Assembly (NCBI GenBank): GCA_947632435.1
Contig: CANRPC010000003.1
Coordinates: forward strand, 5,326 to 69,325
Direction of reading: 5' to 3'
DNA length: 64,000 nt
Source: an uncultured Bacilli bacterium
GTDB lineage: Bacteria; Bacillota_I; Bacilli_A; RFN20; CAG-449
How positions within the stretch are numbered: the stretch's first letter is position 1; every line of letters begins with the position of its first letter. Made by a program: the position numbers and the translations under genes. This document shows positions 9,338 to 38,913 of this stretch, in pieces. The notes beneath the pieces were generated by a model that searched no databases, was not told the origin of the DNA, and saw only the letters and a program-made list of their open reading frames with translations.

Positions 9338-9634
9338 ATGAAAATTAAGAATTTATTAATCCTTCCTCTTATGCTTTTAGGTTTACCTTTAGTTTCTTGT
9401 AATAAACAAGAAAATAATAAAATAACCATCGCAGAGGTAACTCATTCCATATTTTATGCACCTATGTATGTAGCAAAAAACAAAGGATTCTTCAAAGAAG
9501 AAGGACTTGATGTAGATATCATTACTACGCCTGGCGCGGATAAAACAATGGCATCTTTGCTTTCTAAAGACTCGCAAATTGGTTTAATGGGGAAGAGCCC
9601 TGAATTGGAGCGTCAACTCCAATATCATTCATAA
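9338..9634 (+). pseudogene. 5-prime fragment of NMT1/SsuA-type ABC substrate-binding lipoprotein gene, interrupted at ~9590
   Basis: AAGAGG RBS followed by ATG 9338. The product starts MKIKNLLILPLMLLGLPLVSC (lipobox) and continues ITIAEVTHSIFYAPMYVAKNKGFFKEEGLDVDI, which is typical of NMT1/THI5-like SBPs. After ...SQIGLMG the frame runs into foreign sequence and stops at 9632-9634. Confidence 0.8.
9565..9616. other. attL (host arm 9565-9589, GG core 9590-9591, element arm 9592-9616)
   Basis: This is the junction deduced from restoring the SBP reading frame. The element arm gaagagccctgaattggagcgtcaa is the imperfect inverted copy of the element arm at attR. Confidence 0.6.
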
Positions 9635-9705
9635 TCACTACTTAGTGCCCAATCTAGTTTTATTTTTGAACTTTATTAATTCATTTTGTAAAAGTCTCTT
9701 TACAA

Positions 9706-10620
9706 TTATGATTTATAATACTGTTCAAAATTCTCTGTTGTTCTTTCATTATATTGTTTTAACAATAACTTGAATTCATTATCAAGAACATCTAAAACAT
9801 TAATTTTTTCTATATCAATATTTGTGTTAGTTTCTTTACAAAGCATTACGTAAGACGTTCGCAAAACATAATATAACATTTGTGATAATTCAAAATAATG
9901 AAGCAAAGGATATCTACATATACTTATGTTACCATGCGAATATGAATGACACATTTTATGAAGTTTTTCTAGTCGTTCTAATAAAATGTTTTTTTCCTCA
10001 TCACTATCTTTTTTTAGATATTTAATTAATCCATCAAAAGAGTATGGATGAGTAGCAACAATCTGATGATAGTTTTCAATCTTATCAACCCATCCAAAAT
10101 GCAAATAATTAATCATGCTTTTTTCATTTTTGTTTATTCTATTTGTGTATTTATCACGAAATTCTTCAGTATAGCCCTCACCGCAATTTTCTTTACGAAC
10201 ATCGTAGTCGATAAAATCACCAAATTCTTTAATAACATTAGGTGTTTTATTAATTATCAAAAAATTAATGAAATATTCAATAGCACTTCTAGCACAAGAA
10301 TATGCAGAATCATGAAACCCATCTTCTATCAATGATAAAGTAGCTAAAGATTTATTGAATATTTGATTATAAAAACTACGGCTAAATGAAGAAAAGTTAG
10401 AATTTTGTAATATTGAATTTGCCTTAATAGTAATCACAAATAAATAATATAAAATAGGAAAATATATAAAATTATCACCAGATGTCACTTGTTGCTTTCT
10501 AAAAAACACATCACCATAAAACCGTAGTCTTATAGCATTCATAACTTCATCAACAAGCCTATTTACATATGCATCGTTATTTTGAAAACAGTTTCTTTCA
10601 TCAGGTTTAATAAAAATCAT
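9706..10620 (-). CDS. hypothetical alpha-helical protein with possible HEPN-like R-x4-H motif
   Basis: The ORF in the track starts at TTG 10641. ATG 10620 lies 8 nt after the upstream stop. It contains CRYPLLH (R-x4-H) and SYSHGN. No confident family assignment. Confidence 0.45.
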   Translation of the reverse strand: MIFIKPDERNCFQNNDAYVNRLVDEVMNAIRLRFYGDVFFRKQQVTSGDNFIYFPILYYLFVITIKANSILQNSNFSSFSRSFYNQIFNKSLATLSLIEDGFHDSAYSCARSAIEYFINFLIINKTPNVIKEFGDFIDYDVRKENCGEGYTEEFRDKYTNRINKNEKSMINYLHFGWVDKIENYHQIVATHPYSFDGLIKYLKKDSDEEKNILLERLEKLHKMCHSYSHGNISICRYPLLHYFELSQMLYYVLRTSYVMLCKETNTNIDIEKINVLDVLDNEFKLLLKQYNERTTENFEQYYKS

Positions 10621-10627
10621 TCTAGCT

Positions 10628-10879
10628 TTATGAATTCCCAATTTGACCAGTTATCATAGATTCAATAGATGGATTAATCTTAAACAATTCAAATAACTCA
10701 AAACAATACTTTTTTCTAACTATTTCAAGAACTCTTATTAAGAATGATTGCTTAATTTGTCCACTAAAAAGTCTTTTTAATGTTCGATTATTTTCTCTTT
10801 TCATCTCTTCTATAGAACGAATAGATTCTCTTAAATCAAATGGTTGATTCAAAATCAATTTTCCATAATCCTTATTCAC
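10628..10879 (-). CDS. small hypothetical protein (83 aa)
   Basis: Its GTG start shares one nucleotide with the TAG stop of the RNase III gene (10879). AGAGGA lies ~9 nt upstream. No motif recognised. Confidence 0.4.
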   Translation of the reverse strand: MNKDYGKLILNQPFDLRESIRSIEEMKRENNRTLKRLFSGQIKQSFLIRVLEIVRKKYCFELFELFKINPSIESMITGQIGNS

Positions 10880-11916
10880 TATTCATTATCCTCTTCTTCA
10901 TATTCATCTTTTAATCCACAAATATTGCAGATGCATAAATAAGCAGAATATTTCTTAGCTACCTTTTTAGATGTTGCATAGGCAGTCTCTTCAAATGAAT
11001 GACTTCTTATATAACAACTACACACCCATTTTGGATCACCATTATCATCGTATACTTGATTCTCTGATATACTATACTCCGGCATTGAAATATATCCTTT
11101 TTGGGCTAATTCTTGAAGAGTATTAATTGCATTTTCTAGTGTTAATTCTTCTGGTAATTCATCCATTATAGTAAATAATTCATCATTTTCAGCTAAATCG
11201 TCATAAGCAGATTCTGCCACTAAAGCTCTAGCTTCTGATTTACTATCACCATCTTCATAATAATGCATCCTACCTCTTGGTGTTTCTAAATACAAATGTG
11301 CTCTAAACCCACCATCATCAAGTTCTTCAAACTCATACTCTGGAATTTCACAATTTTCTTTTTGATTCCATTGTTGAATTAAAGCAACATAATCACCTTC
11401 ATCAGTTATCCCATTATTTAGATAGTGATCCATATTCAACATAAAATTTACCACGTTTTCTAATTCATCTGAATCCCATCCACTATCAATTGCAATAGCA
11501 CCTAGTATTGCTTCAAATAGATCTTCTTTAACTGAATCTTCTTCTTGTTGGTTTGATTGAATATCACCATTTCCCATGTATAAATATTCATTAAATCCCA
11601 TCTTATCAATCCTATGTGCAAGCATCTTTTTATTAACAAGTTTCTTTTTAATTTCAGTCAGGCTGCCTTCGGTTTTATATTTACGAGTTAAAAACTCACC
11701 ATCATCATTCTGATAGCCAAACCGATCCATTAAAATTTTAGTGACATAAAAGTCTAGTACCCTATCCCCAACAAATTCAAGTACTTCATTGTTTGCTCCA
11801 CCATTTTCTTGTGAATAAGAGCGTCTTGTGAATGCTTGAAACAAAAGTTCAGGTTCATTAAACCAGTAACTAATTTGTCTTTGAACATCCTCAAGATAAT
11901 CATTTAAATCTTTCAT
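10879..11916 (-). CDS. RNase III-domain protein with two C-terminal dsRBD-like units
   Basis: Has the RNase III signature NEVLEFVGDRVLD and a second catalytic block EDLFEAILGAIAIDSG. Two dsRBD-like stretches each end in a SK..A....A pattern: DSKSEARALVAESAYDDL and TSKKVAKKYSAYL. GGAGGA RBS precedes ATG 11916. Confidence 0.75.
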   Translation of the reverse strand: MKDLNDYLEDVQRQISYWFNEPELLFQAFTRRSYSQENGGANNEVLEFVGDRVLDFYVTKILMDRFGYQNDDGEFLTRKYKTEGSLTEIKKKLVNKKMLAHRIDKMGFNEYLYMGNGDIQSNQQEEDSVKEDLFEAILGAIAIDSGWDSDELENVVNFMLNMDHYLNNGITDEGDYVALIQQWNQKENCEIPEYEFEELDDGGFRAHLYLETPRGRMHYYEDGDSKSEARALVAESAYDDLAENDELFTIMDELPEELTLENAINTLQELAQKGYISMPEYSISENQVYDDNGDPKWVCSCYIRSHSFEETAYATSKKVAKKYSAYLCICNICGLKDEYEEEDNE

Positions 11917-12183
11917 AAAATCCTCCGTTCAATTGTCAGGAAGATAAACAAAAAAAGTCCATAAAATAGGTACACTATTCCCACTAGAACGGATTGTACC
12001 TTCATCATAAGCTTTTAACTTTGCAAAATGTTTATATAAACCACTATTTATTTAATCAACACTCATTTGCATAAGAATCATTAAATAAATCTTGTTTTAT
12101 ATCCCGATTTTGAGACCATCAAAGCCATTTATCTTTTGACAAAAATATTTTACTCCAAGTATTATAAAAAATCTACTATTTAG

Positions 12184-12212
12184 AAGAAAAAACGTCGATG
12201 CGTCGACGTTAT
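12184..12212 (-). terminator. rho-independent terminator downstream of the ATPase/RloB operon
   Basis: GC-rich 8-bp stem aacgtcga/tcgacgtt (12191-12198 / 12203-12210) with a 4-nt loop. It is followed on the minus strand by a T-run. Confidence 0.6.
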
Positions 12213-12322
12213 TTAACTATAAGTTTTTTCTTAAAATCATTCATAATAATTCTAAATCAGTTCTTTCGCAAACAAGTAAATTCTTAGCTAAAGCCAAAAT
12301 CTTAATAAAAGCAATAATGAAA

Positions 12323-13360
12323 TTATTTATCGTAAATTTTATCTATATCTTCTAAAGAAACCAAAATACTTCTCTTTTGACCTGGAAATCGTTTACTTAA
12401 TATACCTTTGTTCTCAAAGATTCTAAAAAGATGTTTTGCGTATATTTCTGAAATACTCGCCATTTCCATGAATGGTTTTATATTTACAATGCTTTTACTA
12501 ACTATTAAGCATGCATATTCTTTCTCCTGCTCATATTTTTTATTTTCAATGGATTCAAGATAGTCTTTCAATAATTTAAAATTATCAATTTCCTTTGCAA
12601 ATCCTTTTATATAGCAGATAATCGTGTACATAATTGTCGCAAAATAATTAATTATAACGTGATAGTTTTCTTCACAAGTTCCAGTGCATAAGTTTTTGCT
12701 CTTATAAATTTTTAACATATATAAAGGATGTAAAGTTATGTCATTAACTTCCCATGTAGAATTTTCTTTTTTAAAAGTTTTTATGTTTCTAATTAAATTT
12801 TCTAACATTAATTTATTAAAATTGCATTGGATATACTCCATTGTATTTTGTGAAAATTTGCTGTCATAGTATTGATTTAATTCGTTTTTATATCCAATAA
12901 AGGAATTAGATTCATATTTTCTATTAAAATCATATTCTGCGATGGATTCAATGCATGGTACACTCAATACCAATAATCCATCACTCATGTTAGAAAACTT
13001 TTTATAAGCCGCTTCTATTTCATCAATACTATTGTGATCTGAATCATAAACAATAAAAATACCAGCAAAATATACATTAGGTTCAAAAAACAGTCTATTA
13101 ATTGATTCAGAACTGATTTCAATATCATCTTTATTTTTTGAAAAAATTAAATCTTTAAGTCTATTTTTAGGGCCTTGAATGACAAATACATTTTCTTTTT
13201 CATTGGAAAACTGTATTTTCTTAAAATCACCATTAAAAGATAAAGGTGTTGGATATACGACAACATCTAAATCATATTGACGTAATACAAATTCAAAGAT
13301 ACTTGGTTCGGTTTTTGATCCTTCAACAATAATCAAATAATTACGTTTTCCTGAGATCAT
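12323..13360 (-). CDS. RloB-like / Toprim-type protein with C-terminal wHTH-like tail (AbiLii / AriB-like partner)
   Basis: The N-terminus YLIIVEGSKTEPSIFEF matches the RloB-family (I.CEG..TE..YF) Toprim-like start. It begins 3 nt after the ATPase gene stop. The C-terminus ISEIYAKHLFRIFENKGILSKRFPGQKRSILVSL looks like a winged helix. Confidence 0.55.
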   Translation of the reverse strand: MISGKRNYLIIVEGSKTEPSIFEFVLRQYDLDVVVYPTPLSFNGDFKKIQFSNEKENVFVIQGPKNRLKDLIFSKNKDDIEISSESINRLFFEPNVYFAGIFIVYDSDHNSIDEIEAAYKKFSNMSDGLLVLSVPCIESIAEYDFNRKYESNSFIGYKNELNQYYDSKFSQNTMEYIQCNFNKLMLENLIRNIKTFKKENSTWEVNDITLHPLYMLKIYKSKNLCTGTCEENYHVIINYFATIMYTIICYIKGFAKEIDNFKLLKDYLESIENKKYEQEKEYACLIVSKSIVNIKPFMEMASISEIYAKHLFRIFENKGILSKRFPGQKRSILVSLEDIDKIYDK

Positions 13361-13363
13361 AAT

Positions 13364-14527
13364 CTAATCCTCTATATCAAACAATTTTCCAAAATACATT
13401 TTTTCAATATTATTAATTTCTCTAATATTAGGATAAATTTGTGATAGTCTATAGTAAGTTGAATATCCTCTATTCCATTTAGCAAAATAAATTTGATCTG
13501 GTCTTAAATGTTGAAGAATATGCGTATTATGAGAAGAAAATACTAATTGAATACTTTTCTTCTTAACAACATTTAAGAAAGAGACTATTGCTGTTGGATG
13601 CAATGCCAATTCTAATTCATCAATAAATAACACACCATTTTCTGGTAGTGATAGTAAAATTGATAGCAACAAGCTTTGATTTCTCATACCATCAGAAATC
13701 ATAGTTAAAGGTAATTCAGCATTTTCAAGTCCTTCATATTTTATAAAGAAAGGATTTTGGCTATTTAAACCAGGTCGTGCTTCTTTTTTTATAATTGAAT
13801 ATATTGGAAATTCATCATAGTCTTTCAATATATCTTTCACTTCTTCTGATTTTGATACCATCAAATCAGCAACAGACATATTATTAAATATTTTTGATGA
13901 AACATATGCTCCTGCAGCTTGACGTGGCAAATCCACAAAGGTAAAAGAAGTTATAAACTTATAAGCGTTTTGAATTCTATCATCATTTATTTCTATAGAA
14001 GCAAGATATCTTAATGTCGGAACCAATAAAGAACGATTTTCTATTTCAATTTTTGTAACTACATTTTTAAATTTTTCGCTATTTATTTCTCTTTCAAATA
14101 TATACTCATCATTAACTTTTAAGTATTCATTTTCTATCCTATTTAATGGGCTTGTAGAAATGAAGTATTTATATTGCTCGTCTCCTATAGAAAAATCAAT
14201 TAAAATACTTCCATTAATCGGTTTCACATTTTTATATTCTTTTTGGTCTTGTTCTGCTTTTTTTAGTTTGTCTATATATTCTTTAAGATCAAATTGATTA
14301 ACTACAAATGGGACTAAGTTATCAACTGGACTAATCATTAAAAATATTAATTGTTGGATTCCTTTAAAAAAGGATGATTTACCACTTCCATTATGTCCAT
14401 ATATTGCGATAGGATTTACTCTTCCATTTAAAATATTATCTTCTAAAAATTTGTAATTTTTTTTAGAAAAATCAATTTCGCAAGTTCCTATGGAATTGAT
14501 ATTTTTTAAAACTATCTTATTAATCAT
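13364..14527 (-). CDS. AAA_21-type ABC-like ATPase (AbiLi / AriA / RloA-like)
   Basis: Walker A is IYGHNGSGKSSF, Walker B is VLFIDELELALHP, and FSSHN follows. It sits immediately upstream of the RloB-like gene. Confidence 0.7.
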   Translation of the reverse strand: MINKIVLKNINSIGTCEIDFSKKNYKFLEDNILNGRVNPIAIYGHNGSGKSSFFKGIQQLIFLMISPVDNLVPFVVNQFDLKEYIDKLKKAEQDQKEYKNVKPINGSILIDFSIGDEQYKYFISTSPLNRIENEYLKVNDEYIFEREINSEKFKNVVTKIEIENRSLLVPTLRYLASIEINDDRIQNAYKFITSFTFVDLPRQAAGAYVSSKIFNNMSVADLMVSKSEEVKDILKDYDEFPIYSIIKKEARPGLNSQNPFFIKYEGLENAELPLTMISDGMRNQSLLLSILLSLPENGVLFIDELELALHPTAIVSFLNVVKKKSIQLVFSSHNTHILQHLRPDQIYFAKWNRGYSTYYRLSQIYPNIREINNIEKMYFGKLFDIED

Positions 14528-14658
14528 ATCTTTAATCTCCTATACTGTATATTTTATACACTTATATATTATCATAAGACTTTATATAAATAAAGTATTT
14601 GATAAAAATGTATGATTTATACACTTTTAATATGCTATCCTCAGACATCATTAATGCA

Positions 14659-16167
14659 CTAATCCATTACTTTGCTTATTTTATAGATGAAATTAAATTT
14701 ATATTTATTACCATCAAATATAATATCTACTCTTTCAATAAGTTTCCTGACCAAATCTAAATCATTGCATTCACTAGACAAAGATTTTATTTTATTTATA
14801 AATTTGCGAATTTCATTTTTAGATATTTTCGATTCCTCTATTTTATGATTAACAATCATCAGTTTTTCTTCTAACTCCTGTTGCTCTTTTTGTAGTTTCT
14901 CGCGTGATTTATTAAATTCATAAAGAGTTATATTCTCTAGAGCATAATTTTCAAACAATTTTTTTAGACTTAAATTTAATTGAGATAATCTTCTTTCAAT
15001 ATTTTCTTTTGTTTCTAGTTGAAGTTTCATATCATCCGTTTTAATAAACGATTGAATCGAATTTTCGTCCAATTTAATGGAGTTAATTAATTTGCTTATT
15101 TCTTGAAATATGACTTTATGAACGAAATCCGCTCGAATGGATTTTCTTGGCTTAGTATTTGTCACATAAAGATGATGTCCCCATTTCATATATGGAGCGG
15201 TTTTCCAATATCTCAATCTTTCACCATTTAAAAAAATCATTCCTTTTAGTCTCTCTTGATCTAATGTCAAAGAAACTTTTTTTTGCTTCTGTTTTAATAT
15301 CTTATTTGCCAATTCAAAAGTTTCTTTATCAACAATAGCAGGGTGAGCATTTTCTATCCTTTTTACTTCAACATTTCTTCGATGTGATTTATTGAGATTA
15401 ATCGCTACTCCTACATACTCTTCATTTTTGATGATTCTTAAGATTGTTGTTTTATCCCACTTATAGGGATTTTTTTTATATTTATCCTTTAATCGATATC
15501 CTTTTTTTATTTTGTAAACTGTGGGAATCCATATTTTTTCTTCTTCTAAAGTTTTTGCAATTTTAGTTATACCATAACCTTGGATATACAAAGCAAAGAT
15601 TTTTTTCACAATTATAGATGATTCATCATCAATAACAAGTTGATGGCTTTCATCAAATTTATATCCATATAATGGCTCTGTACCTATATCTTTTTTTGTA
15701 GCTAGAAATTCATAAGTTCGATTTGCTTTTTTCTTGCAATCTTTTAAATATCGGTCATTCATAAAACAACGTAAAAGATAAGAATCGTCTTCATTTGTCG
15801 CTGAATCATAATGATCAGAAATGGCAATAAAACGAATCTTCTTTTTAGGGAATATTTCTTCTAAATACTCACCAACTTCAATTAGATTTCTTCCAAATCT
15901 AGACAAATCTTTTACTATAATACAGTTAAACTTCTTGCGATTTAAGTCATCGATAAGTTCTTGAAATTTAGGACGGAAAAAGTCTTTTCCTGAAAAGCCA
16001 TCATCTATATAAGTTTTATAAATGTAAAATCCTTCTTCTAAAGCGTAATCGCTTAAAAGATGGATTTGATTTTGAATCGACCTGGAATAATCTTTCTTTT
16101 CTTCATCTTCTTCAGATAGTCTTATGTATAGAGCTGCAATCTTGTTGTTTATTAGTGTTTTGTTCAT
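14659..16167 (-). CDS. large serine recombinase (no Cys-type zinc ribbon visible)
   Basis: The N-terminus AALYIRLSEEDE....SIQNQ...L..Y and DDGFSGKDF.RP.F form the resolvase catalytic domain, followed by a recombinase domain and a coiled-coil tail. AAGGGG RBS precedes ATG 16167. It overlaps the upstream recombinase gene by 56 nt. Confidence 0.85.
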   Translation of the reverse strand: MNKTLINNKIAALYIRLSEEDEEKKDYSRSIQNQIHLLSDYALEEGFYIYKTYIDDGFSGKDFFRPKFQELIDDLNRKKFNCIIVKDLSRFGRNLIEVGEYLEEIFPKKKIRFIAISDHYDSATNEDDSYLLRCFMNDRYLKDCKKKANRTYEFLATKKDIGTEPLYGYKFDESHQLVIDDESSIIVKKIFALYIQGYGITKIAKTLEEEKIWIPTVYKIKKGYRLKDKYKKNPYKWDKTTILRIIKNEEYVGVAINLNKSHRRNVEVKRIENAHPAIVDKETFELANKILKQKQKKVSLTLDQERLKGMIFLNGERLRYWKTAPYMKWGHHLYVTNTKPRKSIRADFVHKVIFQEISKLINSIKLDENSIQSFIKTDDMKLQLETKENIERRLSQLNLSLKKLFENYALENITLYEFNKSREKLQKEQQELEEKLMIVNHKIEESKISKNEIRKFINKIKSLSSECNDLDLVRKLIERVDIIFDGNKYKFNFIYKISKVMD

Positions 16168-17803
16168 AAATAAAACCCCTTATTACTTCATCCGCGTATT
16201 TGTATTCAATCGTTATTTGAATTCCTTTATCTGCATGGTAACGCTTATTTGTCTTCTTTTGACCTATATAAATCTTATTTATCAATGATAAGATAAGTTC
16301 TTCTTTCATATCTTCAATCGAATCTAGTTTGCTATTTATAAACAAAGATAGAAGTCTTTTTGTATTAGATACAAAATCAATATTTTCTATTTTTGTTTTT
16401 AAGTTTAAAAGCTCATCTAAACGTTTTTGAATTTCTATTTGTTTGTCTCTATATTCTTTGGAGCGACTATTATATTCAGACAAAGTAATATGGTCCATTC
16501 CATAGAGTTCAAAAAGTTTCTTTAAAAAAACATCGTATTTTGCAAATTCTTTATTTAATAACTCTATTTCTTCCATGTGTGAATTAGGGATGTTTTTTTT
16601 AATATTTTCAATATTAGAAGCAAATTGAAGAATAGAATCTTGATGTAGAAGAAAATATTCTTTAAATTGTTTTAATTCTTCAAATAATACTTGATGTAAA
16701 AATTCATTTGTTACTCTTGGTTTTATAACACATTCTGTGTTTTTACAATAAATTGTCCCTTTTTCCGTGGGTCTTTTTATAGATTGATTCTTTTTAAAAA
16801 CTAATTTCTTTTTGCAACTCGCACAATAACAGAGCCCTCTTAAAGGATCAAGTGATTTAAGTTCATGAGCATATTTATATTTATTTCTTAATTCTTGAAC
16901 TTGCTGATAGGTATTTTTATCTATAATAGGTTCAAAAGCGTCTTCAAAATAGTAACGATCATCTGTTTTATTTTTTATTTTATTATGTATTTTAAAGGAT
17001 ATTTTAGTGGTTTTAGCTGTAACTAAACATCCTGTATAGTCAATTGTAGATATAATCGTTTCAACAGTATGCATTTTCCAGTTATATTTTTTATCTTCAT
17101 CTAATAGGTCAATCTTACTTCCCATTTTTCCATAAGTGAAGTAATTGTAATATGCTGGTGTTAAGACCTTTTCTTTTCTTAAATTCTGACATATTTCTTT
17201 GAGAGATTTCCTATCAATTAAAAATTCATGATAAATTCTTTTTACAATAAGCGCAGTTTCTGGATTAATCATTCTTTGTCCTTCTTGATTGAAGGAATAT
17301 CCATATAATGGATAGGCACTTCTTTTTTGAATCCCCTTTTTTTGTTGATAGTTTTTCGTTGCACGAACTTTTTTTGAAATATCTTTAGCATAGAATTCGT
17401 TTATGACATTCTTTAAAGGGACAAAATCATCACTATCACCATTTATAGAATCATAGTTATCATTTATCGCAATATATCTTATATTTTTTTTCGGAAAGTA
17501 TTCTTCAATATAGTATCCAGAAGTGATATAGTTTCTTCCCAATCGAGATAAATCTTTCGTGATTACTAAATCAATTCTCTCTTCTTCAATATCTTGAATC
17601 ATTCGTTTAAATCCTGGCCTATTAAATGATGTTCCTGTGTATCCGTCATCAATATAATAGTCAAAGATTATCCAACCTTTTTTTGTGACGTATTCGGTGA
17701 TAAAAGCCTTTTGATTCGTGATAGAATTTGATTCTTTGAATTCTTCATCTTCACGAGATAATCTACAATATATTGCTACATTATAGTTTAATTTGGCTTT
17801 CAT
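16112..17803 (-). CDS. large serine recombinase (with CxCxxC...CxxxxC zinc ribbon)
   Basis: Has VAIYCRLSREDE....SITNQ and DDGYTGTSFNRPGF, the zinc ribbon LCYCASCKKK...YCKNTEC, and a long coiled-coil C-terminus. Confidence 0.85.
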   Translation of the reverse strand: MKAKLNYNVAIYCRLSREDEEFKESNSITNQKAFITEYVTKKGWIIFDYYIDDGYTGTSFNRPGFKRMIQDIEEERIDLVITKDLSRLGRNYITSGYYIEEYFPKKNIRYIAINDNYDSINGDSDDFVPLKNVINEFYAKDISKKVRATKNYQQKKGIQKRSAYPLYGYSFNQEGQRMINPETALIVKRIYHEFLIDRKSLKEICQNLRKEKVLTPAYYNYFTYGKMGSKIDLLDEDKKYNWKMHTVETIISTIDYTGCLVTAKTTKISFKIHNKIKNKTDDRYYFEDAFEPIIDKNTYQQVQELRNKYKYAHELKSLDPLRGLCYCASCKKKLVFKKNQSIKRPTEKGTIYCKNTECVIKPRVTNEFLHQVLFEELKQFKEYFLLHQDSILQFASNIENIKKNIPNSHMEEIELLNKEFAKYDVFLKKLFELYGMDHITLSEYNSRSKEYRDKQIEIQKRLDELLNLKTKIENIDFVSNTKRLLSLFINSKLDSIEDMKEELILSLINKIYIGQKKTNKRYHADKGIQITIEYKYADEVIRGFIYEQNTNKQQDCSSIHKTI

Positions 17804-31598: not shown

Positions 31599-33187
31599 TC
31601 TTTTTTTGCTACTTTTTTGATAAGGATGTAGACCTTATAAATGACATAGATTAATAATATTGAGCCAGCAACACCAATCACGACATAGAATGTTGTTTTT
31701 AATTTGGGTGTAGCTGTTGAGATATTATCTTTCACATCTTCCACAGTTTCTTTAAACTGCCAATAAGATGAGTTGACATCCGAGATGACCTTCGGATCAA
31801 AGATAGATAAGGTGTTTCCATCAATACAGTCCATTTGAATTTCACAGTTTAGGACTTGTCCTCGATATAGAAAGTTCATACGTAAAATTTTAAAATTATG
31901 GACATTCGTGTATTTTGATTCATCCGGTCCACCTTTGAAAATATTCCAGCCATCGGCGTCATAATTGAGAAATAATTGGTATTGGTACGTCTTTCCCTCT
32001 TTTTCGTTGGAGCGGAATGTTCCTTTTTTAACTCCTTGATAAGTGGATAGACCTAGAAAGCCACCTGAAGCAGTTTTTGGTGTTAAAGATTTAGCCACAT
32101 CCATACTGCCACTTGCGGCGATAAAGTTGTACCAAGGCTTTTGATCACTTGCTAGAGAGTAGTTGACATCCACGCGATATATATCATCGAGATTTAAGTC
32201 GGTATTGAAGTAAACAGCATGCTCATAGCCACCGAAATTCAAGGAAAAGACCGATTGACATTCAATGTCTGTAATTTCTACATAACAATGCGTCATCGAC
32301 TGGATCATCGCATTCTTTTGATATAAACATGATTCATTAAATTGAAATTGCTTCTGATCATTAGAAACGATTTTATATTCGGTGCCAAGTTCTGTGTCTT
32401 CTTTTCCATACTCCACTCCAAAATAGAAAGGATCGAGATTGGAACTGAAACCAGAAACTTTAAAGATTGTACTTTCTAGTCCTGGTCCGTAAGAGAATAA
32501 TTGATTATCTTGCTTACAGAAGCAAAAACCTGCAATGGGCGTCATATTGAGTTGTAAATTGATTTCAGGATAGCAATCAAATGTTGTCGTTTCAAACAAG
32601 GGGTCTCCGTTTAAATGTTGACATTTTCCCGTGATTTCCTGTTGTTTATAGGTGACATCATTGAGTGTAATTGATTGCAGATTATATCCTTCAATCGGCA
32701 GATATTCACTGCTCCAGATGAAGTTTAACTGCGTTCCATCAAAATACATTCCCACAGCTTGGTTTCTGGATAAAGATTCGATTGGCACTTTCAAGTTTTT
32801 ATTGAAGTTGACCCAGAATTTTTGATCATCTTCATACATAGACATCTTGCTTTTGATTTGTGCCTCGGTGTATCCTTTCCAGAGATTAGATAGTTCTGTA
32901 TATTGCTTGAACTTGTAGTAAGGGATTTGATAATAAGGCGATTTATAGTATTTTAAATGGAATGATGAAAGTGTGCCATTTTCCACAAGTGTTTCTACTT
33001 CGCCGCAGATATCTTCAAATAAGTGATGAGTACCTGTTGTAGGCGCAGCAGCATACTTTATTTCTTCTTTTAATCCCTTAGGAACGTCCATCGGTATGGC
33101 TTTATTAGAACTGTCTGGTGGTTTAAAACTGGTGAGAAAGACCATCGCAAGTGAGGTGATAAGAAAGACAAATTTCTTTCCAAACAT
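31595..33187 (-). CDS. surface protein: signal peptide + C-terminal TM anchor + basic tail
   Basis: The N-terminus is MFGKKFVFLITSLAMVFLTSF. The C-terminus is FYVVIGVAGSILLIYVIYKVYILIKKVAKKE. Confidence 0.5.
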   Translation of the reverse strand: MFGKKFVFLITSLAMVFLTSFKPPDSSNKAIPMDVPKGLKEEIKYAAAPTTGTHHLFEDICGEVETLVENGTLSSFHLKYYKSPYYQIPYYKFKQYTELSNLWKGYTEAQIKSKMSMYEDDQKFWVNFNKNLKVPIESLSRNQAVGMYFDGTQLNFIWSSEYLPIEGYNLQSITLNDVTYKQQEITGKCQHLNGDPLFETTTFDCYPEINLQLNMTPIAGFCFCKQDNQLFSYGPGLESTIFKVSGFSSNLDPFYFGVEYGKEDTELGTEYKIVSNDQKQFQFNESCLYQKNAMIQSMTHCYVEITDIECQSVFSLNFGGYEHAVYFNTDLNLDDIYRVDVNYSLASDQKPWYNFIAASGSMDVAKSLTPKTASGGFLGLSTYQGVKKGTFRSNEKEGKTYQYQLFLNYDADGWNIFKGGPDESKYTNVHNFKILRMNFLYRGQVLNCEIQMDCIDGNTLSIFDPKVISDVNSSYWQFKETVEDVKDNISTATPKLKTTFYVVIGVAGSILLIYVIYKVYILIKKVAKKE

Positions 33188-33198
33188 AGTTTCACCTC

Positions 33199-33672
33199 TT
33201 ACTCTTTTTTCGCTTTTGGTTTTACTTCTGCTTGAAAGTCAATTGGTTCATCAAGGATGAAATCCGGATCTTCTTCAAATTCATATCCTAAATCCATAAA
33301 TTGAAGATTTTTGATTTGAGATGGTGATAAATAACAGGTTCGAGTGAGGTCATCAAGTAATTTCACTCTAACAAAGTAATACTTGTCATCACTATCTCTA
33401 TAACGACCAATGCCTATTTCCGCGGGTACATTGTTAAAGCGGAAGGATTTCTTGGTGTTGATGAGTGAACCTTTTCCTTTGGAGTTTAATAGGTATTGAA
33501 CGTCTCCAAGGGTTAACGCTCTAGTAGGTGTTAATTCTAGATTATTAAAATTTTGTGAAAAGGATTGCTCGGCCTTAATTTTGTTTTCTAACACGACAGT
33601 TAGGTTGAATCTGGGGTCTTGTCCTTTTCTTGTTACTACGGTGAGTAATGCGACTACATTGACTTGTTTCAT
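33199..33672 (-). CDS. hypothetical soluble protein (157 aa)
   Basis: GGAAGGAG RBS. It is the second gene of the long minus-strand operon. No motif recognised; a role as an ssDNA-binding protein is speculation only. Confidence 0.4.
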   Translation of the reverse strand: MKQVNVVALLTVVTRKGQDPRFNLTVVLENKIKAEQSFSQNFNNLELTPTRALTLGDVQYLLNSKGKGSLINTKKSFRFNNVPAEIGIGRYRDSDDKYYFVRVKLLDDLTRTCYLSPSQIKNLQFMDLGYEFEEDPDFILDEPIDFQAEVKPKAKKE

Positions 33673-33772
33673 AAAGTCTCCTTCCTAATAGGACAAAAAG
33701 ACCAAGTGATTCTTTTTTGTTCGTGGATTCCTAAACGCGTTGAACATGAAAAGAATTTCTTGGTCAGAAAGT

Positions 33773-33904
33773 TTAGATCGTTATCTTTCCTTTTAAAATC
33801 TTTCTTAATATGCGATAAAAATCGCTGTACTTTCCCTCAATGGTGATTTTCAAGTCTTTTTGTTTAATGATGATTTTAAAAGTTTCTTGATTTGCTTTTT
33901 GCAT
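33773..33904 (-). CDS. possible small ORF (43 aa) at the head of the operon
   Basis: Below the track cutoff. GGAAGGA RBS precedes ATG 33904. Hand translation gives MQKANQETFKIIIKQKDLKITIEGKYSDFYRILRKILKGKITI. Confidence 0.3.
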   Translation of the reverse strand: MQKANQETFKIIIKQKDLKITIEGKYSDFYRILRKILKGKITI

Positions 33905-33998
33905 GAATCTTTTCCTTCCTATCATTAGTTGTCCTTTCCTAATGACAAACTAAGTATCTAGGTTGGAATGGTGCAGTAGACGCATATAAAAAATAAAA

Positions 33999-34040
33999 AA
34001 GCATTTTTGACAAATGAATTTTCACCTATCAAAAATGCTT
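33999..34040 (-). terminator. hairpin + T-run downstream of the RHS/immunity unit
   Basis: 12-bp perfect arms aagcatttttga / tcaaaaatgctt with an 18-nt loop. TTTTTTATTTTTT follows on the minus strand. Confidence 0.4.
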
Positions 34041-34186
34041 CAGATAATTAATGAATTTATTTAGCAATAAAAATATGTATAGATTTATTGTATCAATTTA
34101 ACTATTAACATTTCAGTAAATTATATATTGTCAAAAGATTATAAAACCCTCAATTTTACTAAATGAATCTAATCAGCCTATTAATC

Positions 34187-34588
34187 TTATAAATTTTTAT
34201 TGCTTTTTCTTTCAAGGATAAAACCTGTAGCCATACTGAATATTAAATACGGAATTATTGTAGCGATAGTTACTATAGTAGCAATTTTTGTTTGTGCTAA
34301 TATAATTAAAACAATATTAGTAATAAATAGCAAAATAAGATAAATCAAACTAATTGTTTGAAACCAAAAACCGAAAATAGTAATTGAATTATTTTTTCCT
34401 TTTGCTTGGCCCTTATATAAAAACCAATACCATTTCTTCTCTAATTTTTTAATTTGCTTATTTGAAAATGTTTTTAATGTTAAACTTTGATAGTGAAATC
34501 CTTTACCACGCCATAATGACATAGGGATACCTAATAAAAGTGCTACTAATAATGTAATTATACATGAGGTAATATCACCAAATTCCAT
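34187..34588 (-). CDS. polytopic membrane protein, putative immunity protein for the RHS toxin
   Basis: AAGGAG RBS precedes ATG 34588, 14 nt after the RHS stop. It has about four hydrophobic helices. Immunity is inferred from position. Confidence 0.5.
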   Translation of the reverse strand: MEFGDITSCIITLLVALLLGIPMSLWRGKGFHYQSLTLKTFSNKQIKKLEKKWYWFLYKGQAKGKNNSITIFGFWFQTISLIYLILLFITNIVLIILAQTKIATIVTIATIIPYLIFSMATGFILERKSNKNL

Positions 34589-34601
34589 TAATTTTATCTC
34601 C

Positions 34602-37481
34602 TTAATTCCACAAAATAGTTGTAATCGCACTATATAATGATGAACCTAATGCAAGCCAGTTCATTGAACCTTGAAATGAACTCCAATATACATTTGCATA
34701 AGCACTAAATAATTTATTCATAGCTTTTGTAAATGCTCCTTGTGCAGAACTCGCACTTTTGTACCCACCATTTGCAAATTTACTTATTACTTTACCAAGA
34801 GAAGATTCAGCCTTTTTTACACTATCTACATTGTAATGAGACTTGTGCCTTGCTCCAGCTCCTCCTTTGTAACTAGCTACTGCTCCAATAATTGTTCCTA
34901 AAACAATTTTTCCTATATCAAGTTCAGAAAAAGATTTACCTTCAATCAATTGAGATCCAGCACTTGAAATAAATCCAGTAAATCCACCAATTGCTGTAGA
35001 AACAGCCCGGCTTAATCCAGAGGCTCCTACTAAACCTGAAATTGCTCCCATTCCTATATCAAGTGCAAATTGTCCCCAATTTAGTTCACCTGAAATAGCA
35101 CTAGAAACTAATGAGATTCCCCCACTTATAGCTGCTCCAGTAAGAGCTCCTGCCAATAATCCTCCAGATAGTACTGTTGCAGCAACTGCTCCAACAACTA
35201 ATACTCCTACAACTAAAGTAGCAAGAACCCAATCCCACCAAGCCATTCCTGATGGATCTACTCTCATCACCGGATTATCACCACAATACATATAAAGATT
35301 TAATCCATTAATTTGACCTCTAGTTTCATCTAAGATGGATAATGTATCAGGTGAAATGAATCTTCCTAACTCTGGATCATAATATCTACTATTTAAGTAA
35401 TATAATTGTGTTTCATCATCAAAGAAATACCCCCTGTATCTAAATGGATTTAGGCTAGCAATTTCGTCTACATCTTGCGTTATGATGTGATTTCCATATC
35501 CATCATAAGCATATCCCCCTACAAAGTTTCCATTGTCATCAAAGATTCCAATAATATCTCCTTGGATATTTCTTTGATATATGTACTCTTTTGAACTGCT
35601 ACCATCATTATAATTGAAGCCAACTAATTTGTTCAAGATATATCGGAATATCATGACTTTATTTTCTTGCTTCATCGCTAGGATTTGACTTCCATTTGTA
35701 ATGAATGTTGTTTCTACTCCATTAACTATCTTCTTTCTTCTAATACCATTTGTATCATATTGATACTCAATCTCATCTCCATTTTGATTAAGAATATATG
35801 TTAAATGATTTTGATTGTTCCATTCAAACTCATCATCTTTATATGTCGTTGGTCTTCCCATTTTATCATACTCTAATGATTTGCCATTAAAGGAAATTAA
35901 GCGGTCTCTCTTTTCACAATCATAAACATATTCATCAACATTTGGAGAGTAGAGATTATCATTAAGAGAATAGTCATATGTTTTCTTTAAAAGAATATTT
36001 CCTGCTTTATCATATTTATAGACAATAGTTTTATTAAGCAATGAATTATCTTCTCTTATTAAACGATTTAAACTATCGTAATGATATCTTGTCTTATCTT
36101 CATCTTGTTCAACTGAGATAATATTACCATTTACATCATACTCATATGTTGATGTTTCAGTTAAATATGTGGTTTGACTACCATTTTGTACTTTTACTTT
36201 AGTAATATCTTCTGCGACTAAATTCAAAGTATTTTCATCTTGTTGTAGATAAGAATACTCATGACAAATATCAACTTTATTAGCATTTAAGTTTTGATGT
36301 TTTACTCTACCTAAGGCATCATAATCAAAACTCATTTCTGCGACTGGTAAGAAACTATCCTCAGAATCATCTCTAACAATTCCTTCTCTTAATTGAATAG
36401 ATTTTAAGCGATTATCTTTATCATAACTATTTTTAGTGTTTAAACGATATTCATCTTCACTTAAGATAACATCGCTATCACTAATGAAACGATGATAAGT
36501 ATCATAATGATCTTCTAAGATAAAAGAAGAAACGCCATTTACTTTCTTTTCTTTTTTAATAACTGTATCCCATTCATCAATTGTATTGATGACTTCTTCT
36601 TTATAAATTTCATTGGTGTCTCGGCTTGTCATTTGAGAAATGACAGATGCCACTTGATCCTTATCGTTATAAGACCACTTAGTCGCCCCAAAAGAATCAT
36701 CACCAGAGTATTTTCTTAATAATTCTTTATCATCTGCATCAAAATAACTTTCTACAAATAATCCATCTAGGCTAGTAGATGTTACATGTTTTCTGCTTCT
36801 ATCAACTTTGACATTTGTGAAAGGATCAGTAAATCCATATGTATAATGATCTTCAAAGGTATTCCATAAAACATCTTCCCCGTTTAGTGATACTTTTGTT
36901 TTTCTACCTTGTCCGTCATATTGATAATCAACTTTTACTCCATGATGAGACAATGAAGTTAATAAGCCATAGTTATAAGTAAAGGATGTAGAGTTATTTA
37001 TTCCCTTCGCTGATGAAGAAACACTAAGCAAATCACCAGTATTTTGATCATATTGATAGCAAGTACTTTCTCCATTTACTCCTCTTACTCTACTTTGAAT
37101 GTTTGTTCCTGGTAAATAAGTAACTTCTTCATTTGGATAATTACCATTTATATCTTTAATTTTTCCTTGTGAAGATACCATATTACCATGTTCATCATAA
37201 TTAGCCTTTTCAACTTGCATTAAAGAAGCATCTTTTTTGTTATAGGCTCTCTTTTCAATACAATTTCCTTTATCATCATAGAAACATTCAATAACATTTT
37301 GCTTACTATCTTCTACATATGTTAATTGATCTTTTGCATCATACTGATAAGTCGTAGTAACTACTTCTCCATAAATATTACTTTCTTCTTTTATTAATGG
37401 AACATCTTTCTCATTAAACTCCAGATACTTAATTGTCGAATAACCATCTTGTTCTTGGATAAGACGTTCTTTATTATCATA
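34602..37481 (-). CDS. RHS/YD-repeat toxin, 5-prime truncated, with Gly-zipper hydrophobic C-terminal toxin domain
   Basis: Many YD repeats (YDxxGN, YDxxxRL). The core end is RYYDPELGRFISPD ... NPVMRVDPSG. The frame is open without a start from 37481 down to the first ATG at 37220, with an in-frame TAG at 37482-37484. No signal peptide or secretion domain is present. Confidence 0.85.
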   Translation of the reverse strand, partial: YDNKERLIQEQDGYSTIKYLEFNEKDVPLIKEESNIYGEVVTTTYQYDAKDQLTYVEDSKQNVIECFYDDKGNCIEKRAYNKKDASLMQVEKANYDEHGNMVSSQGKIKDINGNYPNEEVTYLPGTNIQSRVRGVNGESTCYQYDQNTGDLLSVSSSAKGINNSTSFTYNYGLLTSLSHHGVKVDYQYDGQGRKTKVSLNGEDVLWNTFEDHYTYGFTDPFTNVKVDRSRKHVTSTSLDGLFVESYFDADDKELLRKYSGDDSFGATKWSYNDKDQVASVISQMTSRDTNEIYKEEVINTIDEWDTVIKKEKKVNGVSSFILEDHYDTYHRFISDSDVILSEDEYRLNTKNSYDKDNRLKSIQLREGIVRDDSEDSFLPVAEMSFDYDALGRVKHQNLNANKVDICHEYSYLQQDENTLNLVAEDITKVKVQNGSQTTYLTETSTYEYDVNGNIISVEQDEDKTRYHYDSLNRLIREDNSLLNKTIVYKYDKAGNILLKKTYDYSLNDNLYSPNVDEYVYDCEKRDRLISFNGKSLEYDKMGRPTTYKDDEFEWNNQNHLTYILNQNGDEIEYQYDTNGIRRKKIVNGVETTFITNGSQILAMKQENKVMIFRYILNKLVGFNYNDGSSSKEYIYQRNIQGDIIGIFDDNGNFVGGYAYDGYGNHIITQDVDEIASLNPFRYRGYFFDDETQLYYLNSRYYDPELGRFISPDTLSILDETRGQINGLNLYMYCGDNPVMRVDPSGMAWWDWVLATLVVGVLVVGAVAATVLSGGLLAGALTGAAISGGISLVSSAISGELNWGQFALDIGMGAISGLVGASGLSRAVSTAIGGFTGFISSAGSQLIEGKSFSELDIGKIVLGTIIGAVASYKGGAGARHKSHYNVDSVKKAESSLGKVISKFANGGYKSASSAQGAFTKAMNKLFSAYANVYWSSFQGSMNWLALGSSLYSAITTILWN

Positions 37482-37505
37482 CTATTCTATCACGGAGGTT
37501 TTATT

Positions 37506-38105
37506 ATGATTTATGGTTATGTTCGTGTTTCATCAATTACACAAAATATTGATAGGCAAATAGAAGAGATGAAAGAAAAGAATATTGATAATAAACATAT
37601 ATTTGTCGATTATCAGTCTGGAAAAAATTTTCAAAGACAAGAATATCAGATTATGAAGAAGAAATTAAAAAAAGATGATTTACTTTATATTAAATCAATT
37701 GATAGACTTGGAAGAGATTATCAAATGATTATAAATGAATGGGCAGATTTAACAAAAAATATAGGAATTAATATTGTCGTAATTGATATGCCTTTATTGG
37801 ACACTCGGATTGATGAAAAAAGTCTTGTTGGAACTTTTATTGCTGACATTGTGTTACAAATTCTTTCTTTTGTAGCTCAAAATGAAAGAGAGAATATAAA
37901 ACAGCGTCAAGCCGAAGGAATAAGAATCGCAAAAGCAAAAGGCATTCATTTTGGAAGAAAAGCTATTAAACTTCCAGATAATTTTGAACAAACTGTAAAA
38001 TCATATATGACACATAAAATTTCTTTTATGGAAGCATTAACTATTTTAAAAATATCAAGAGCTACATTTTATAAATATTCAAAGAGCATTAGGAATAAGA
38101 AATAA
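37506..38105 (+). CDS. small serine recombinase (resolvase/invertase family)
   Basis: GGAGG RBS precedes ATG 37506. MIYGYVRVSSITQNIDRQ holds the catalytic Ser, followed by DRLGRD and the C-terminal HTH ISRATFYKY. About 199 aa. Confidence 0.85.
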   Translation: MIYGYVRVSSITQNIDRQIEEMKEKNIDNKHIFVDYQSGKNFQRQEYQIMKKKLKKDDLLYIKSIDRLGRDYQMIINEWADLTKNIGINIVVIDMPLLDTRIDEKSLVGTFIADIVLQILSFVAQNERENIKQRQAEGIRIAKAKGIHFGRKAIKLPDNFEQTVKSYMTHKISFMEALTILKISRATFYKYSKSIRNKK

Positions 38106-38144
38106 AATTCTATACATGATAAATCTACATCATCCTTAGTGATT

Positions 38145-38196
38145 TTGACGCTCTATTTCCGGGTTCATGGGCCCTGAAGCAAGTGTCTATGTTTAT
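38145..38196. other. attR (element arm 38145-38169, GG core 38170-38171, host arm 38172-38196)
   Basis: The element arm ttgacgctctatttccgggttcatg is the inverted partner of the attL element arm. The host arm continues the SBP frame as (G)PEASVYVY. Confidence 0.6.
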
Positions 38197-38913
38197 ACTC
38201 AAGGTCAAAAAGATTATGCGGTTAACTTTGCTCAATTAACTCAAAAAGATGGCTCATTCTTACTAGGTAGAGAAAAAATTGAACATTTTGAATATGATAT
38301 GCTAAAAGGCAAAACAATCATTGGAGGTCGTAAAGGTGGTATGCCTTTAATGATTCTAGAACACATTTTAAGGAATAAAGGTATTGAATTTGGTGAAGAT
38401 GATCCTTCTAAAGAAGTAAATATTCGTACCGATGTTTCTTTTGATGCAATGTCTGGAGTATTTGTCGCAGGTCAAAGCGATTTTGTCACAGCTTTTGAAC
38501 CTGTAGCAACTCAAGTTGAAACTTTAAATAAAGGATATATTATTACGTCTCTTGGTCAAGATTCAGGAAATATCCCTTATACTTGTTTTTCTACTTTAAA
38601 ATCATATATGGAAAAAAATGAAGATAAACTTGTTAAATTTACAAACGCGATTACAAAAGGTTTAAATTACGTTTTAACAAGCGAAATCAAAGACATTGTT
38701 CCATATTTAAAAACCGATTTTGCTTCAAGTAGTGATGAAGAACTTACTAAAGTTTTAACTAACTATTTAAATATCGAAGCTTGGCCTTCAACTCCTTCAT
38801 TTAATAAGGAAAACTTCGATAAGTTAATTGAAATCGTAAAAGAAGCTGGAGAGTTAGATCAAGATGTATCTATCTCTTATGAAACTTTAGTTACAAACAA
38901 ATACATTAAGTAG
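38167..38913 (+). pseudogene. 3-prime fragment of the same NMT1/SsuA-type substrate-binding protein gene
   Basis: (M)GPEASVYVYTQGQKDYAVNFAQLTQKDGSFLLGRE... is colinear with the C-terminal two thirds of NMT1-like SBPs. It has no own signal peptide or RBS context. Together with the 5-prime fragment it gives ~331 aa. Confidence 0.8.

Follow-up and report, generated by a model that had tools for sequence, protein, structure and literature searches.

The window (the whole stretch of 64,000 nucleotides that was analyzed) carries the gene of an NMT1-type SBP lipoprotein that is cut in two, at one conserved codon, by a 28.6-kb mobile island (Table 1). The GC content of the insert is 26–36%, versus 20–23% in the flanks. 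The 5' ORF reads ...SKDSQIGLMG and then KSPELERQLQYHS-stop, and the ORF at 38167 starts with MGPEASVYVY. Joining positions 9338-9589, GG and 38172-38913 yielded an in-frame protein of 331 amino acids with a single lipobox (LVSC), which matched the families NMT1 (PF09084, 7e-19) and NMT1_2 (PF13379). An initial annotation made from the sequence alone had described one SBP gene split by an insertion of this size, a 5' fragment running into foreign codons, the resumption at 38167 and a joined product of about 331 residues with one lipobox; all of this was borne out, with the sites correct to the base.

Table 1. Coordinates of the split SBP gene, the att sites and the features of the integrated element within the window.
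Feature	Position	Strand	Remarks
SBP gene 5' fragment, NMT1-type lipoprotein	9338..9589	+	residues 1-84
SBP 5' ORF continuation: GG + 13 foreign codons	stop at 9632-9634	+	ORF reading
attL	9565..9616	+	B arm 9565-9589, central GG 9590-9591, P' arm 9592-9616
Integrated element	9592..38171	.	28,580 bp, one GG core copy counted
DUF5677 gene, cargo pseudogene	9706..10879	-	two ORFs after 35-nt deletion relative to L011
RNase III + dsRBD protein, cargo	10879..11916	-	
AbiL-type defence pair, cargo	12323..14527	-	AbiLii-like 12323-13360; AbiLi-like AAA_21 ATPase 13364-14527
LSR-B, 502 aa	14659..16167	-	Resolvase + Recombinase domains; catalytic residues intact; zinc-ribbon cysteines lost
LSR-A, 563 aa	16112..17803	-	Resolvase + Recombinase domains; zinc-ribbon cysteines present
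Divergent pair	18060..18841	.	SymE/AbrB-like 18060-18308 (-), Cro/C1 HTH 18467-18841 (+)
Cargo block	18828..23205	+	metallo-beta-lactamase-fold protein, sigma-70-like factor, 344-aa protein, 600-aa secreted trypsin-like protease
UvrD/PcrA-like helicase, broken by 2-nt insertion	24144..25972	-	intact at 608 aa in L012/L013
Rep_trans rolling-circle initiator / possible MobT-type relaxase	26228..27361	-	PF02486, 4e-29
629-aa multi-pass membrane protein, Walker A motif	27497..29386	-	matches no family
Three proteins (514, 207, 530 aa)	29371..33187	-	no family match
RHS-repeat protein (872 aa) + overlapping 147-aa membrane ORF, cargo	34187..37220	-	
Pin-like small serine recombinase, 199 aa	37506..38105	+	ends 40 nt before P arm
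attR	38145..38196	+	P arm 38145-38169, central GG 38170-38171, B' arm 38172-38196
SBP gene 3' fragment	38172..38913	+	residues 86-331 + stop codon

In an alignment of 13 sequences with intact homologues of 330-343 amino acids (66-83% identity), the junction lies within an invariant, gap-free block, IGLMGPEA, and the insertion target is codon 84/85 of the gene. The joined protein is colinear and gapless with intact homologues of 330-335 amino acids (best identity 83%), and the join brings back the invariant block with residues neither gained nor lost, as expected of two colinear parts of one protein. Both halves also map onto one uninterrupted gene, abutting at GG, in 12 related intact loci; in one of these (L001), the left half runs up to 6248 and the right half begins at 6247. 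The search for empty sites suggested by the annotation was successful in part: intact sites were retrieved from other species, the closest matching the reconstructed 52-nt attB at 47 of 52 nt, but none from the same species. A circular junction of the element was also sought and not found. Integration inactivates the SBP gene: what is left is a lipoprotein stub of 84 residues that runs into a foreign tail, plus a 3' part without signal peptide. Biologically, this is gene disruption of an ordinary kind, caused by a mobile element, and no new mechanism is implied.

When the two element ends were joined, they formed a 52-bp imperfect palindrome, the reconstructed attP (TTGACGCTCTATTTCCGGGTTCATG-GG-GAAGAGCCCTGAATTGGAGCGTCAA), with arms complementary at 19 of 25 positions, the outer nine all included. 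A scan of all possible centres returned a single best dyad axis, between the two G's at 38170/38171, and our recomputation reproduced the two 25-nt arms around a central dinucleotide that had previously been aligned by hand. The observed palindrome score was reached by 1 of 20,000 random joins of window sequence, and the half-site consensus was present in the window at the two element ends only (0 occurrences in 100 shuffles). The sole identity common to attL and attR is ATGGG (9587-9591 and 38167-38171), and the dyad axis of attP falls on its last GG. This 2-bp core shared by attP and attB is non-palindromic, and LSR (large serine recombinase) systems need a non-palindromic central dinucleotide for orientation (PMC3783163). 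The insertion was conservative, with no target duplication beyond the core, and attL and attR are hybrids of attP and attB. Strand exchange would take place at the central GG, by conservative site-specific recombination between an attP of ~52 bp and a putative attB located in the DNA encoding IGLMGPEA. The zinc-ribbon-domain (ZD) motif of A118 attP half-sites occupies positions 16-24 (PMC3783163), and the perfectly symmetric outer blocks of our attP coincide with the ZD-motif position of LSR attP half-sites. In LSR systems, the ZD motif of attB is expected to lie ~5 bp closer to the centre than that of attP (Rutherford 2013). In the window, GAC-containing near-matches to TTGACGCTC are found in both B arms, with unequal shifts (2 and 7 nt; hand alignment); they vary across host alleles, and no clear motif emerges.

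The element encodes two LSRs in tandem, LSR-A and then LSR-B, with a 56-nt overlap; the same order, with the genes in tandem or overlapping, is found in six of six pairs at 40-98% identity. Both proteins match PF00239 and PF07508, and in an alignment of A/B pairs neither of them varies in the R-x-S and DLSRxxR motifs. Pfam Zn_ribbon_recom was undetected in either window LSR, and the zinc ribbon of LSR-A rests on the CxxC...C...C pattern seen in the alignment. In the SBP-targeting clade, as well as in L018, none of the zinc-ribbon cysteines remain in LSR-B; its recombinase domain also carries a deletion, and its C-terminus is shorter. Among solved structures, the catalytic domains of TnpX (2mhc, E 6e-33) and TP901-1 are the nearest. 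In L012, the LSR genes lie directly against attL, and we explain their non-adjacency in the window by cargo gain, the 5 kb in between probably being a recent acquisition.

The element consists of a conserved backbone and variable cargo slots (AbiL pair, RNase III, protease, RHS protein). The backbone comprises the LSR pair, the SymE-like/HTH module, the UvrD-like helicase, Rep_trans, the membrane proteins, and the right-end small recombinase with the P arm. The SymE/AbrB-like and HTH genes, a probable regulatory module, flank an intergenic region with two 33-nt direct repeats (18335-18408) and are kept in L011-L013. The AbiL-type pair is missing from L012, the cargo block that encodes the protease is missing from L012 and L013, and the RHS-repeat cargo is missing from L022. 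By eye, the 514-, 207-, and 530-aa proteins have hydrophobic N-terminal signal-like and C-terminal anchor-like segments; modelling gave no usable structure for the 629-aa protein (pLDDT 36.7). Profile matching detected no T4SS families or recognisable mating-pore genes in the element, which includes five large ORFs without any family. No TcpA/FtsK-type coupling protein was confirmed in the element, the 629-aa P-loop membrane protein matching no family, and no recombination directionality factor was identified there. After excision, the element would probably undergo rolling-circle replication, and it could possibly be mobilised through Rep_trans acting as a MobT-type relaxase. The copy in the window shows signs of decay, and may no longer be fully mobile because its helicase is frameshifted and the DUF5677 gene has suffered a 35-nt deletion.

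The same target is reused by related elements. In L011, the element has its attL at the base used in the window, but within another host SBP allele; its DNA is 95.6% identical to that of the window element, in a host whose SBP 5' fragment shares only ~66% amino acid identity and whose neighbouring genes differ. In L022, the P arm is identical and adjoins yet another, third host SBP allele, and in both of these divergent alleles the ends of the element lie at the same codon as in the window. LSR pairs at 80%, 56%, and 55% identity (L012, L014, and L016/17) abut this SBP codon as well. Specifically, L014 is a complete, different element of 11.1 kb that interrupts the same codon and has its own palindrome, with different arms (TTTTCCCAACGTT...) that match at the outer 13 of 13 and at 18 of 24 positions overall, centred on the same GG. 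Two conditions that the annotation had named as refuting, sites mapping elsewhere and a palindrome not conserved in related elements, were checked, and neither applied: related elements interrupt the SBP gene at the identical base, and L014 keeps the palindromic architecture with a different arm sequence. A more distant LSR pair, at 40% identity (L021), splits a SpoVD-like PBP gene. In this case, it is the dyad axis, and not the longest shared identity, that predicts the crossover restoring the SxN motif QNSCN, which is seen in the solved SpoVD structure 7rcz.

These observations make it very probable that the island was inserted by its own tandem LSR pair, through recombination of its attP with an attB in the SBP gene. 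The initial annotation had likewise proposed an LSR-type site-specific insertion with a GG crossover, which agrees with the two LSR genes in the element and with a dyad axis that coincides with the shared core. The acting enzyme is most probably this pair, and LSR-A and LSR-B would work together, as with CcrA and CcrB. The main alternative, which we consider a good deal less probable but worth serious attention, is that a single LSR, most likely LSR-A, both integrates and excises the element, LSR-B being a degenerate paralogue or a regulatory partner, e.g., a directionality factor. The loss of zinc-ribbon cysteines, the recombinase-domain deletion, and the shorter C-terminus of LSR-B point in this direction, as does the perfect symmetry of the outer attP arms, which is expected if one kind of ZD binds both. 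However, the catalytic residues invariant in the family are all retained in LSR-B, and its gene has remained in tandem and overlapping with that of LSR-A over 40-98% identity while the cargo changed, which favours selection for an active protein. Moreover, CcrA and CcrB are reported to work as a heterotetramer (Misiura 2013, as cited in PMC10581047).

We find it improbable that the 199-aa Pin-like small serine recombinase beside attR is the integrase and that the LSR pair serves another purpose. On the one hand, this gene stops 40 nt from the P arm and forms with it a conserved right-end module in L022 (98% identity), where the adjoining cargo is different, and a 71% homologue lies at the far end of L023, an element with one LSR. 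On the other hand, L014, a complete element, occupies the identical base of the SBP gene, and its only Resolvase-domain proteins on record are the LSR pair, which makes the small recombinase an unlikely integrase; likewise, no Resolvase-domain protein is on record in L021 besides the LSR pair. The att arms measure 24-25 nt and have their best-conserved symmetric block at the outer end, the LSR ZD-motif position, whereas resolvase/invertase crossover sites have 12-nt half-sites. In addition, the small recombinase comes from an invertase/resolvase family with very many members (E <= 0.001 for each of the 8,000 candidates scored), its homologues are 63-100% identical among the 120 matches listed, and its best match is to Mpi-type invertases, far below the cut-off. 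Multimer resolution, or a role as accessory or directionality factor, is more likely for this protein. Finally, although the source appears metagenome-derived and same-species empty sites are missing, it is extremely improbable that the split is an assembly artefact (chimeric contig) or an unrelated rearrangement, given that the same junctions occur independently on contigs from other samples (attL in L011, attR in L022), that records of the window's own 3' SBP fragment and small recombinase exist for 2-3 contigs, and that the breakpoints are base-exact, in frame, and palindrome-centred.

Insertion by the element's own LSR pair invites comparison with several known systems. Phage and transposon serine integrases (A118/LI, Bxb1, phiC31, TP901-1, and TnpX of Tn4451) also have an imperfect-palindrome attP of ~50 bp, a 2-bp non-palindromic crossover, a distal symmetric block at the ZD-motif position, and minimal attP-attB identity, and integration of A118 disrupts the comK coding sequence. 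Those systems, however, use a single LSR, whereas the window element has a conserved pair. Two tandem LSR genes are found in SCCmec (CcrA/CcrB in rlmH), the ccrAB-Ent Enterococcus cassette chromosome (ECC), and the staphylococcal ccrDE island (rimL), with ccrAB-Ent reportedly expressed from a single bicistronic mRNA (PMC10581047, PMC6222049). These cassette chromosomes also resemble the window element in occupying a fixed site within a conserved housekeeping-type gene or at its end, in highly variable cargo with the recombinases as nearly the sole conserved genes, and in the replication module that accompanies the recombinases (PMC10581047, PMC6222049). Anti-phage defence genes travel with SCCmec according to PMC11470126, and the window element carries the AbiL pair. 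In contrast, SCC targets the 3' end of rlmH (orfX) and not an internal codon of a disrupted gene, its central dinucleotide is GA instead of GG, and its replication module is Cch/CCPol instead of Rep_trans and a UvrD-like helicase. Unlike SCC/ECC, the window element has a B subunit without zinc-ribbon cysteines and an extra small serine recombinase at the opposite end, and its hosts are uncultured low-GC gut Bacilli/Erysipelotrichales-like MAGs and not staphylococci or enterococci. Orthology to Ccr was rejected, with 64.9 and 46.8 bits against NCBIfam SCCmet_CcrB (cut-off 900) and 46.3 bits against SCCmet_CcrA (cut-off 700). The element thus appears SCC/ECC-like in its logic, and it falls outside that group on Ccr orthology and on the rlmH site.

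Firmicutes IMEs with site-specific serine recombinases integrate into and disrupt dispensable genes and have very short flanking repeats, and MobT/Rep_trans proteins can be both relaxase and RCR initiator (PMC5704250). The window element may be like MobT IMEs, with Rep_trans present and no mating-pore genes recognisable among the ORFs that match a family, but described IMEs have one serine recombinase, while here we found an LSR pair and no confirmed TcpA/FtsK-type coupling protein. With its LSR genes, palindromic attP with a shared 2-bp core, and conservative insertion, the island has the hallmarks predicted for an LSR-mediated integrative element. We regard it as a well-documented case of an element type that is already known, and not as a new mechanism.

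The paired-LSR "cassette chromosome" logic therefore reaches beyond staphylococci and enterococci into uncultured gut Bacilli, where such islands appear to move anti-phage defence genes between species. The locus also provides a candidate attP/attB pair, resolved to the base, for a set of uncharacterised LSRs, and its natural replicates (three host alleles and two arm sequences) indicate which sequence variation the site tolerates. This att/LSR set is useful for studies of recombinase specificity and as input to genome-engineering catalogues. As a speculative proposal that may well prove wrong, LSR-A and LSR-B could form an obligate heteromer, one subunit of which has lost zinc binding, and together with the convergently placed small serine recombinase flanking attP constitute a three-recombinase module. 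This module would define an undescribed family of SCC-like, defence-carrying islands in uncultured low-GC gut Bacilli, with clades retargeted to different conserved coding motifs (GLMGPE in the SBP, SxN in the PBP).

The initial annotation had described a single SBP gene interrupted by an insertion, and the window sequence agreed with this description on both sides of the break. The 5' ORF reads ...SKDSQIGLMG before running into KSPELERQLQYHS and a stop codon, and the ORF at 38167 begins MGPEASVYVY. As claimed, joining the two fragments through GG gave an in-frame protein of 331 aa with a single lipobox, which was matched by NMT1 and NMT1_2 over residues 38-256, a range that spans the junction. 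Intact homologues, 330-343 aa in length, numbered in the thousands in a database search, and the best had 83% identity at 100% coverage. In a 13-sequence alignment of the fragments with intact homologues, the junction fell within the invariant, gap-free block IGLMGPEA, and in 12 related loci with an intact gene both halves formed one uninterrupted gene, abutting at GG. These relatives are other species (uncultured Bacilli/Erysipelotrichales MAGs), and their closest sites, in line with the proposed empty site, matched 47 of the 52 positions of the reconstructed attB. Flank synteny around the intact genes was mostly absent, with some in L008 (left) and L009 (right, partly) only, so the empty site is demonstrated at the level of the gene and not of the locus. 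An exact search of metagenome_contigs for the same-species empty site found none. The insert itself is compositionally foreign (26-36% GC versus 20-23%). The host flank immediately preceding the SBP gene carries defence-like genes. Within the window, neither flank contains ABC permease or ATPase genes that would belong with this SBP; L011, L012 and L016, loci with related elements, differ in this respect.

The only identity common to attL and attR is ATGGG. The palindrome noted in the initial annotation was recovered in the reconstructed attP, whose arms are complementary at 19 of 25 positions and perfectly so over the outer nine. A dyad scan over all centres and all core lengths gave one axis, on the last GG of ATGGG. 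Random joining of window sequence reached the attP score in only 1 of 20,000 cases, and the half-site consensus, TTGACGCTCNANTTCNGGGNTCNT, occurred in the window at both element ends only (0/100 shuffles). The base 3' of GG is an element-derived G in attL, and a host-derived C, T or A, the third position of a Gly codon, in attR and the empty sites; the crossover therefore cannot sit further right. Orientation-specific recombination by large serine recombinases (LSRs) requires a non-palindromic central dinucleotide (PMC3783163), and the central GG is non-palindromic. The att sites are built like those of serine integrases generally; a shifted zinc-ribbon domain motif was searched for by hand in attB, with nothing convincing. 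Exact searches for the circular junction found none in metagenome_contigs or viral_contigs. The half-site consensus had one exact, unrelated Pseudomonadota match in genome_contigs and none in viral_contigs, and related elements were thus located through proteins.

Coordinates and predicted sequences of the element, its flanks and related loci
Feature	Locus	Position	Strand	Content or sequence
Host flank	window	4833-8863	-	SLFN_AlbA_2/HATPase_c_4; AAA_21 ATPase; 321-aa protein without assigned function
SBP 5' fragment	window	9338-9589		
attL	window	9565-9616		B arm, GG, P' arm
DUF5677 gene	window	9706-10879	-	frameshift by 35-nt deletion relative to L011
Defence cargo	window	10879-14527	-	AbiLi/AbiLii-like pair; stand-alone RNase III with dsRNA-binding domain; in L011, absent from L012
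LSR-B	window	14659-16167	-	502 aa
LSR-A	window	16112-17803	-	563 aa
Direct repeats	window	18335-18408		two of 33 nt, 41 nt apart
Cargo without counterpart in L012/L013	window	18828-23205	+	metallo-beta-lactamase-fold protein; sigma-70-like factor; 344-aa protein without family match; 600-aa secreted trypsin-like protease
UvrD-like helicase	window	24144-25972	-	frameshift by 2-nt insertion relative to L013
Unmatched proteins	window	27497-33672	-	629, 514, 207, 530 and 157 aa
RHS-repeat protein	window	34187-37220	-	872 aa; Rhs core domain, then glycine-/hydrophobic-rich C-terminal region
Small recombinase	window	37506-38105	+	199 aa, Pin-like
Small recombinase	L022	4964-5563		
Small recombinase	L023	8001-8600		
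attR	window	38145-38196		P arm, GG, B' arm
Dyad axis	window	38170/38171		between the two G's
SBP 3' fragment	window	38172-38913		
Repeated gene sets	window	44640-62424	-	three large ORFs of ~670-690 aa, two then a 645-aa ORF; two pairs of 215 + 100 aa ORFs; ABC_tran domain in at least one ORF
Element junctions in the SpoVD-like PBP gene	L021	4315-4330, 15405-15420		longest attL/attR identity: ATGTAAT
Circular attP junction (predicted)	window			...CCGGGTTCATGGGGAAGAGCCC...
Repaired attB junction (predicted empty site)	window			...ATTGGTTTAATGGGCCCTGAAGCA...
Reverse complement of P' outer block (expected P-arm outer block)	L012			TTCGACGTCG...

Related elements were traced from homologues of the 563-aa recombinase. 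That of L011 (98% protein identity, 95.6% nucleotide identity over 9.3 kb) has the same P' arm joined at the same base to a different host SBP allele, the 5' fragment of which is 66% identical to that of the window and has different neighbouring genes. In L022, a P arm of identical sequence, accompanied by a small recombinase with 98% identity, is joined to a third host allele. The gene was broken after ...ATGGG in L012 (80% identity), L014 (56%) and L016/L017 (55%) as well. The 11.1-kb element of L014 is complete and shares none of the cargo; in its reconstructed attP the arms are of another sequence, complementary at 13 of 13 outer positions (TTTTCCCAACGTT) and 18 of 24 overall, and the centre is the same GG. 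The initial annotation's reading could have failed on colinearity, on empty sites elsewhere or on conservation of the palindrome; we found colinear homologues, insertions at the same base and the L014 palindrome.

In the distant pair L020/L021 (40%), a SpoVD-like PBP gene is split. The P' arm of L021 copies 7 nt of host sequence past the true crossover, so that the longest attL/attR identity lies off the dyad axis and puts the junction 4-5 nt to the right of the AA on which the axis falls. Joining at this AA gave QNSCNV, which is the SxN active-site motif in an alignment with the solved structure of SpoVD, 7rcz, versus QNECNV for the naive join. For this recombinase family, the crossover can therefore be validly predicted from the dyad axis.

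Three serine recombinases are encoded in the element. LSR-A and LSR-B are paralogues (33% identical) whose genes overlap by 56 nt, and the order A then B, tandem or overlapping, was found in all six pairs compared (40-98% identity). The catalytic R-x-S and DLSRxxR motifs are kept in 12 of 12 proteins of these pairs. Zinc-ribbon cysteines are kept in the A proteins. Among the B proteins, those of the SBP-targeting clade have lost all four and retain every catalytic residue; that of L018 has none of these cysteines either, and they are still present in the most distant one (L021). The LSR pair of L012 lies directly against attL; in the window, 5 kb of cargo common to L011 only separates the two (AbiLi/AbiLii, RNase III and DUF5677).

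The third recombinase belongs to a very abundant family. Its gene stops 40 nt short of the P arm and points toward attR; across the reconstructed attP it converges with the LSR pair. Together with the P arm it forms an end module conserved in L022. A 71% homologue occurs at the far end of L023, a single-LSR element. Site choice does not depend on this gene, since L014 and L021 are complete elements that lack it. An internal repeat search gave no convincing inverted repeats that would provide this recombinase with an invertible segment. We speculate that the enzyme resolves multimers of the excised circle or modulates the reaction.

The backbone common to the window element and L012/L013 comprises the LSR pair, a divergent SymE-like/HTH pair, a 246-aa protein, a UvrD-like helicase, Rep_trans, the 629-aa membrane P-loop protein and proteins with signal-like and anchor-like hydrophobic ends. 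The helicase and DUF5677 frameshifts show that the window copy is partly decayed. Five proteins encoded at 27497-33672 had no Pfam or PHROGs family match. The 629-aa protein spans the membrane several times and has a Walker A motif, and those of 514, 207 and 530 aa bear the hydrophobic ends; L012/L013 contain counterparts of at least the genes for the proteins of 629, 514 and 530 aa. Searches with the 629-aa protein gave only Walker-A-level noise in Pfam (E <= 10), PHROGs and NCBIfam, and its single-sequence AlphaFold model reached a pLDDT of 36.7. Together, these unmatched proteins may make up a module for transfer or for the cell surface. A plectrovirus- or inovirus-like prophage, to which Rep, a membrane ATPase and anchored proteins might point, was dropped since there was no Zot or coat-protein match. 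In the ICEs and IMEs of Firmicutes, Rep_trans proteins act as RCR initiators and as MobT relaxases (PMC5704250), which makes a replicative, mobilizable island with a putative transfer route the most likely reading.

The element follows the same logic as SCCmec, ECC and the ccrDE island, cassette chromosomes with paired LSRs, but its target and replication module differ from theirs and its LSRs fall far below both equivalog thresholds for CcrA and CcrB. Comparative reasoning of this kind has already yielded predictions for thousands of LSR/att pairs (PMC10083194). The finding is a correct, well-replicated case of an already known sort of element, and its modest added value lies in the paired recombinases, one partner being zinc-less.

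No tRNA or Rfam family was found within the window. The repeated gene sets beyond the SBP gene suggest a tandem duplication of transporter modules. In place of the cargo block at 18828-23205 of the window, L022 encodes a sigma factor together with an S8 peptidase near its right end. The RHS-repeat protein has no obvious secretion signal at its start and, with a 147-aa membrane ORF overlapping downstream, looks like a toxin/immunity arrangement. The direct repeats lie in the intergenic region that separates the SymE/AbrB-like gene from the divergent HTH gene, and are probably operator sites.
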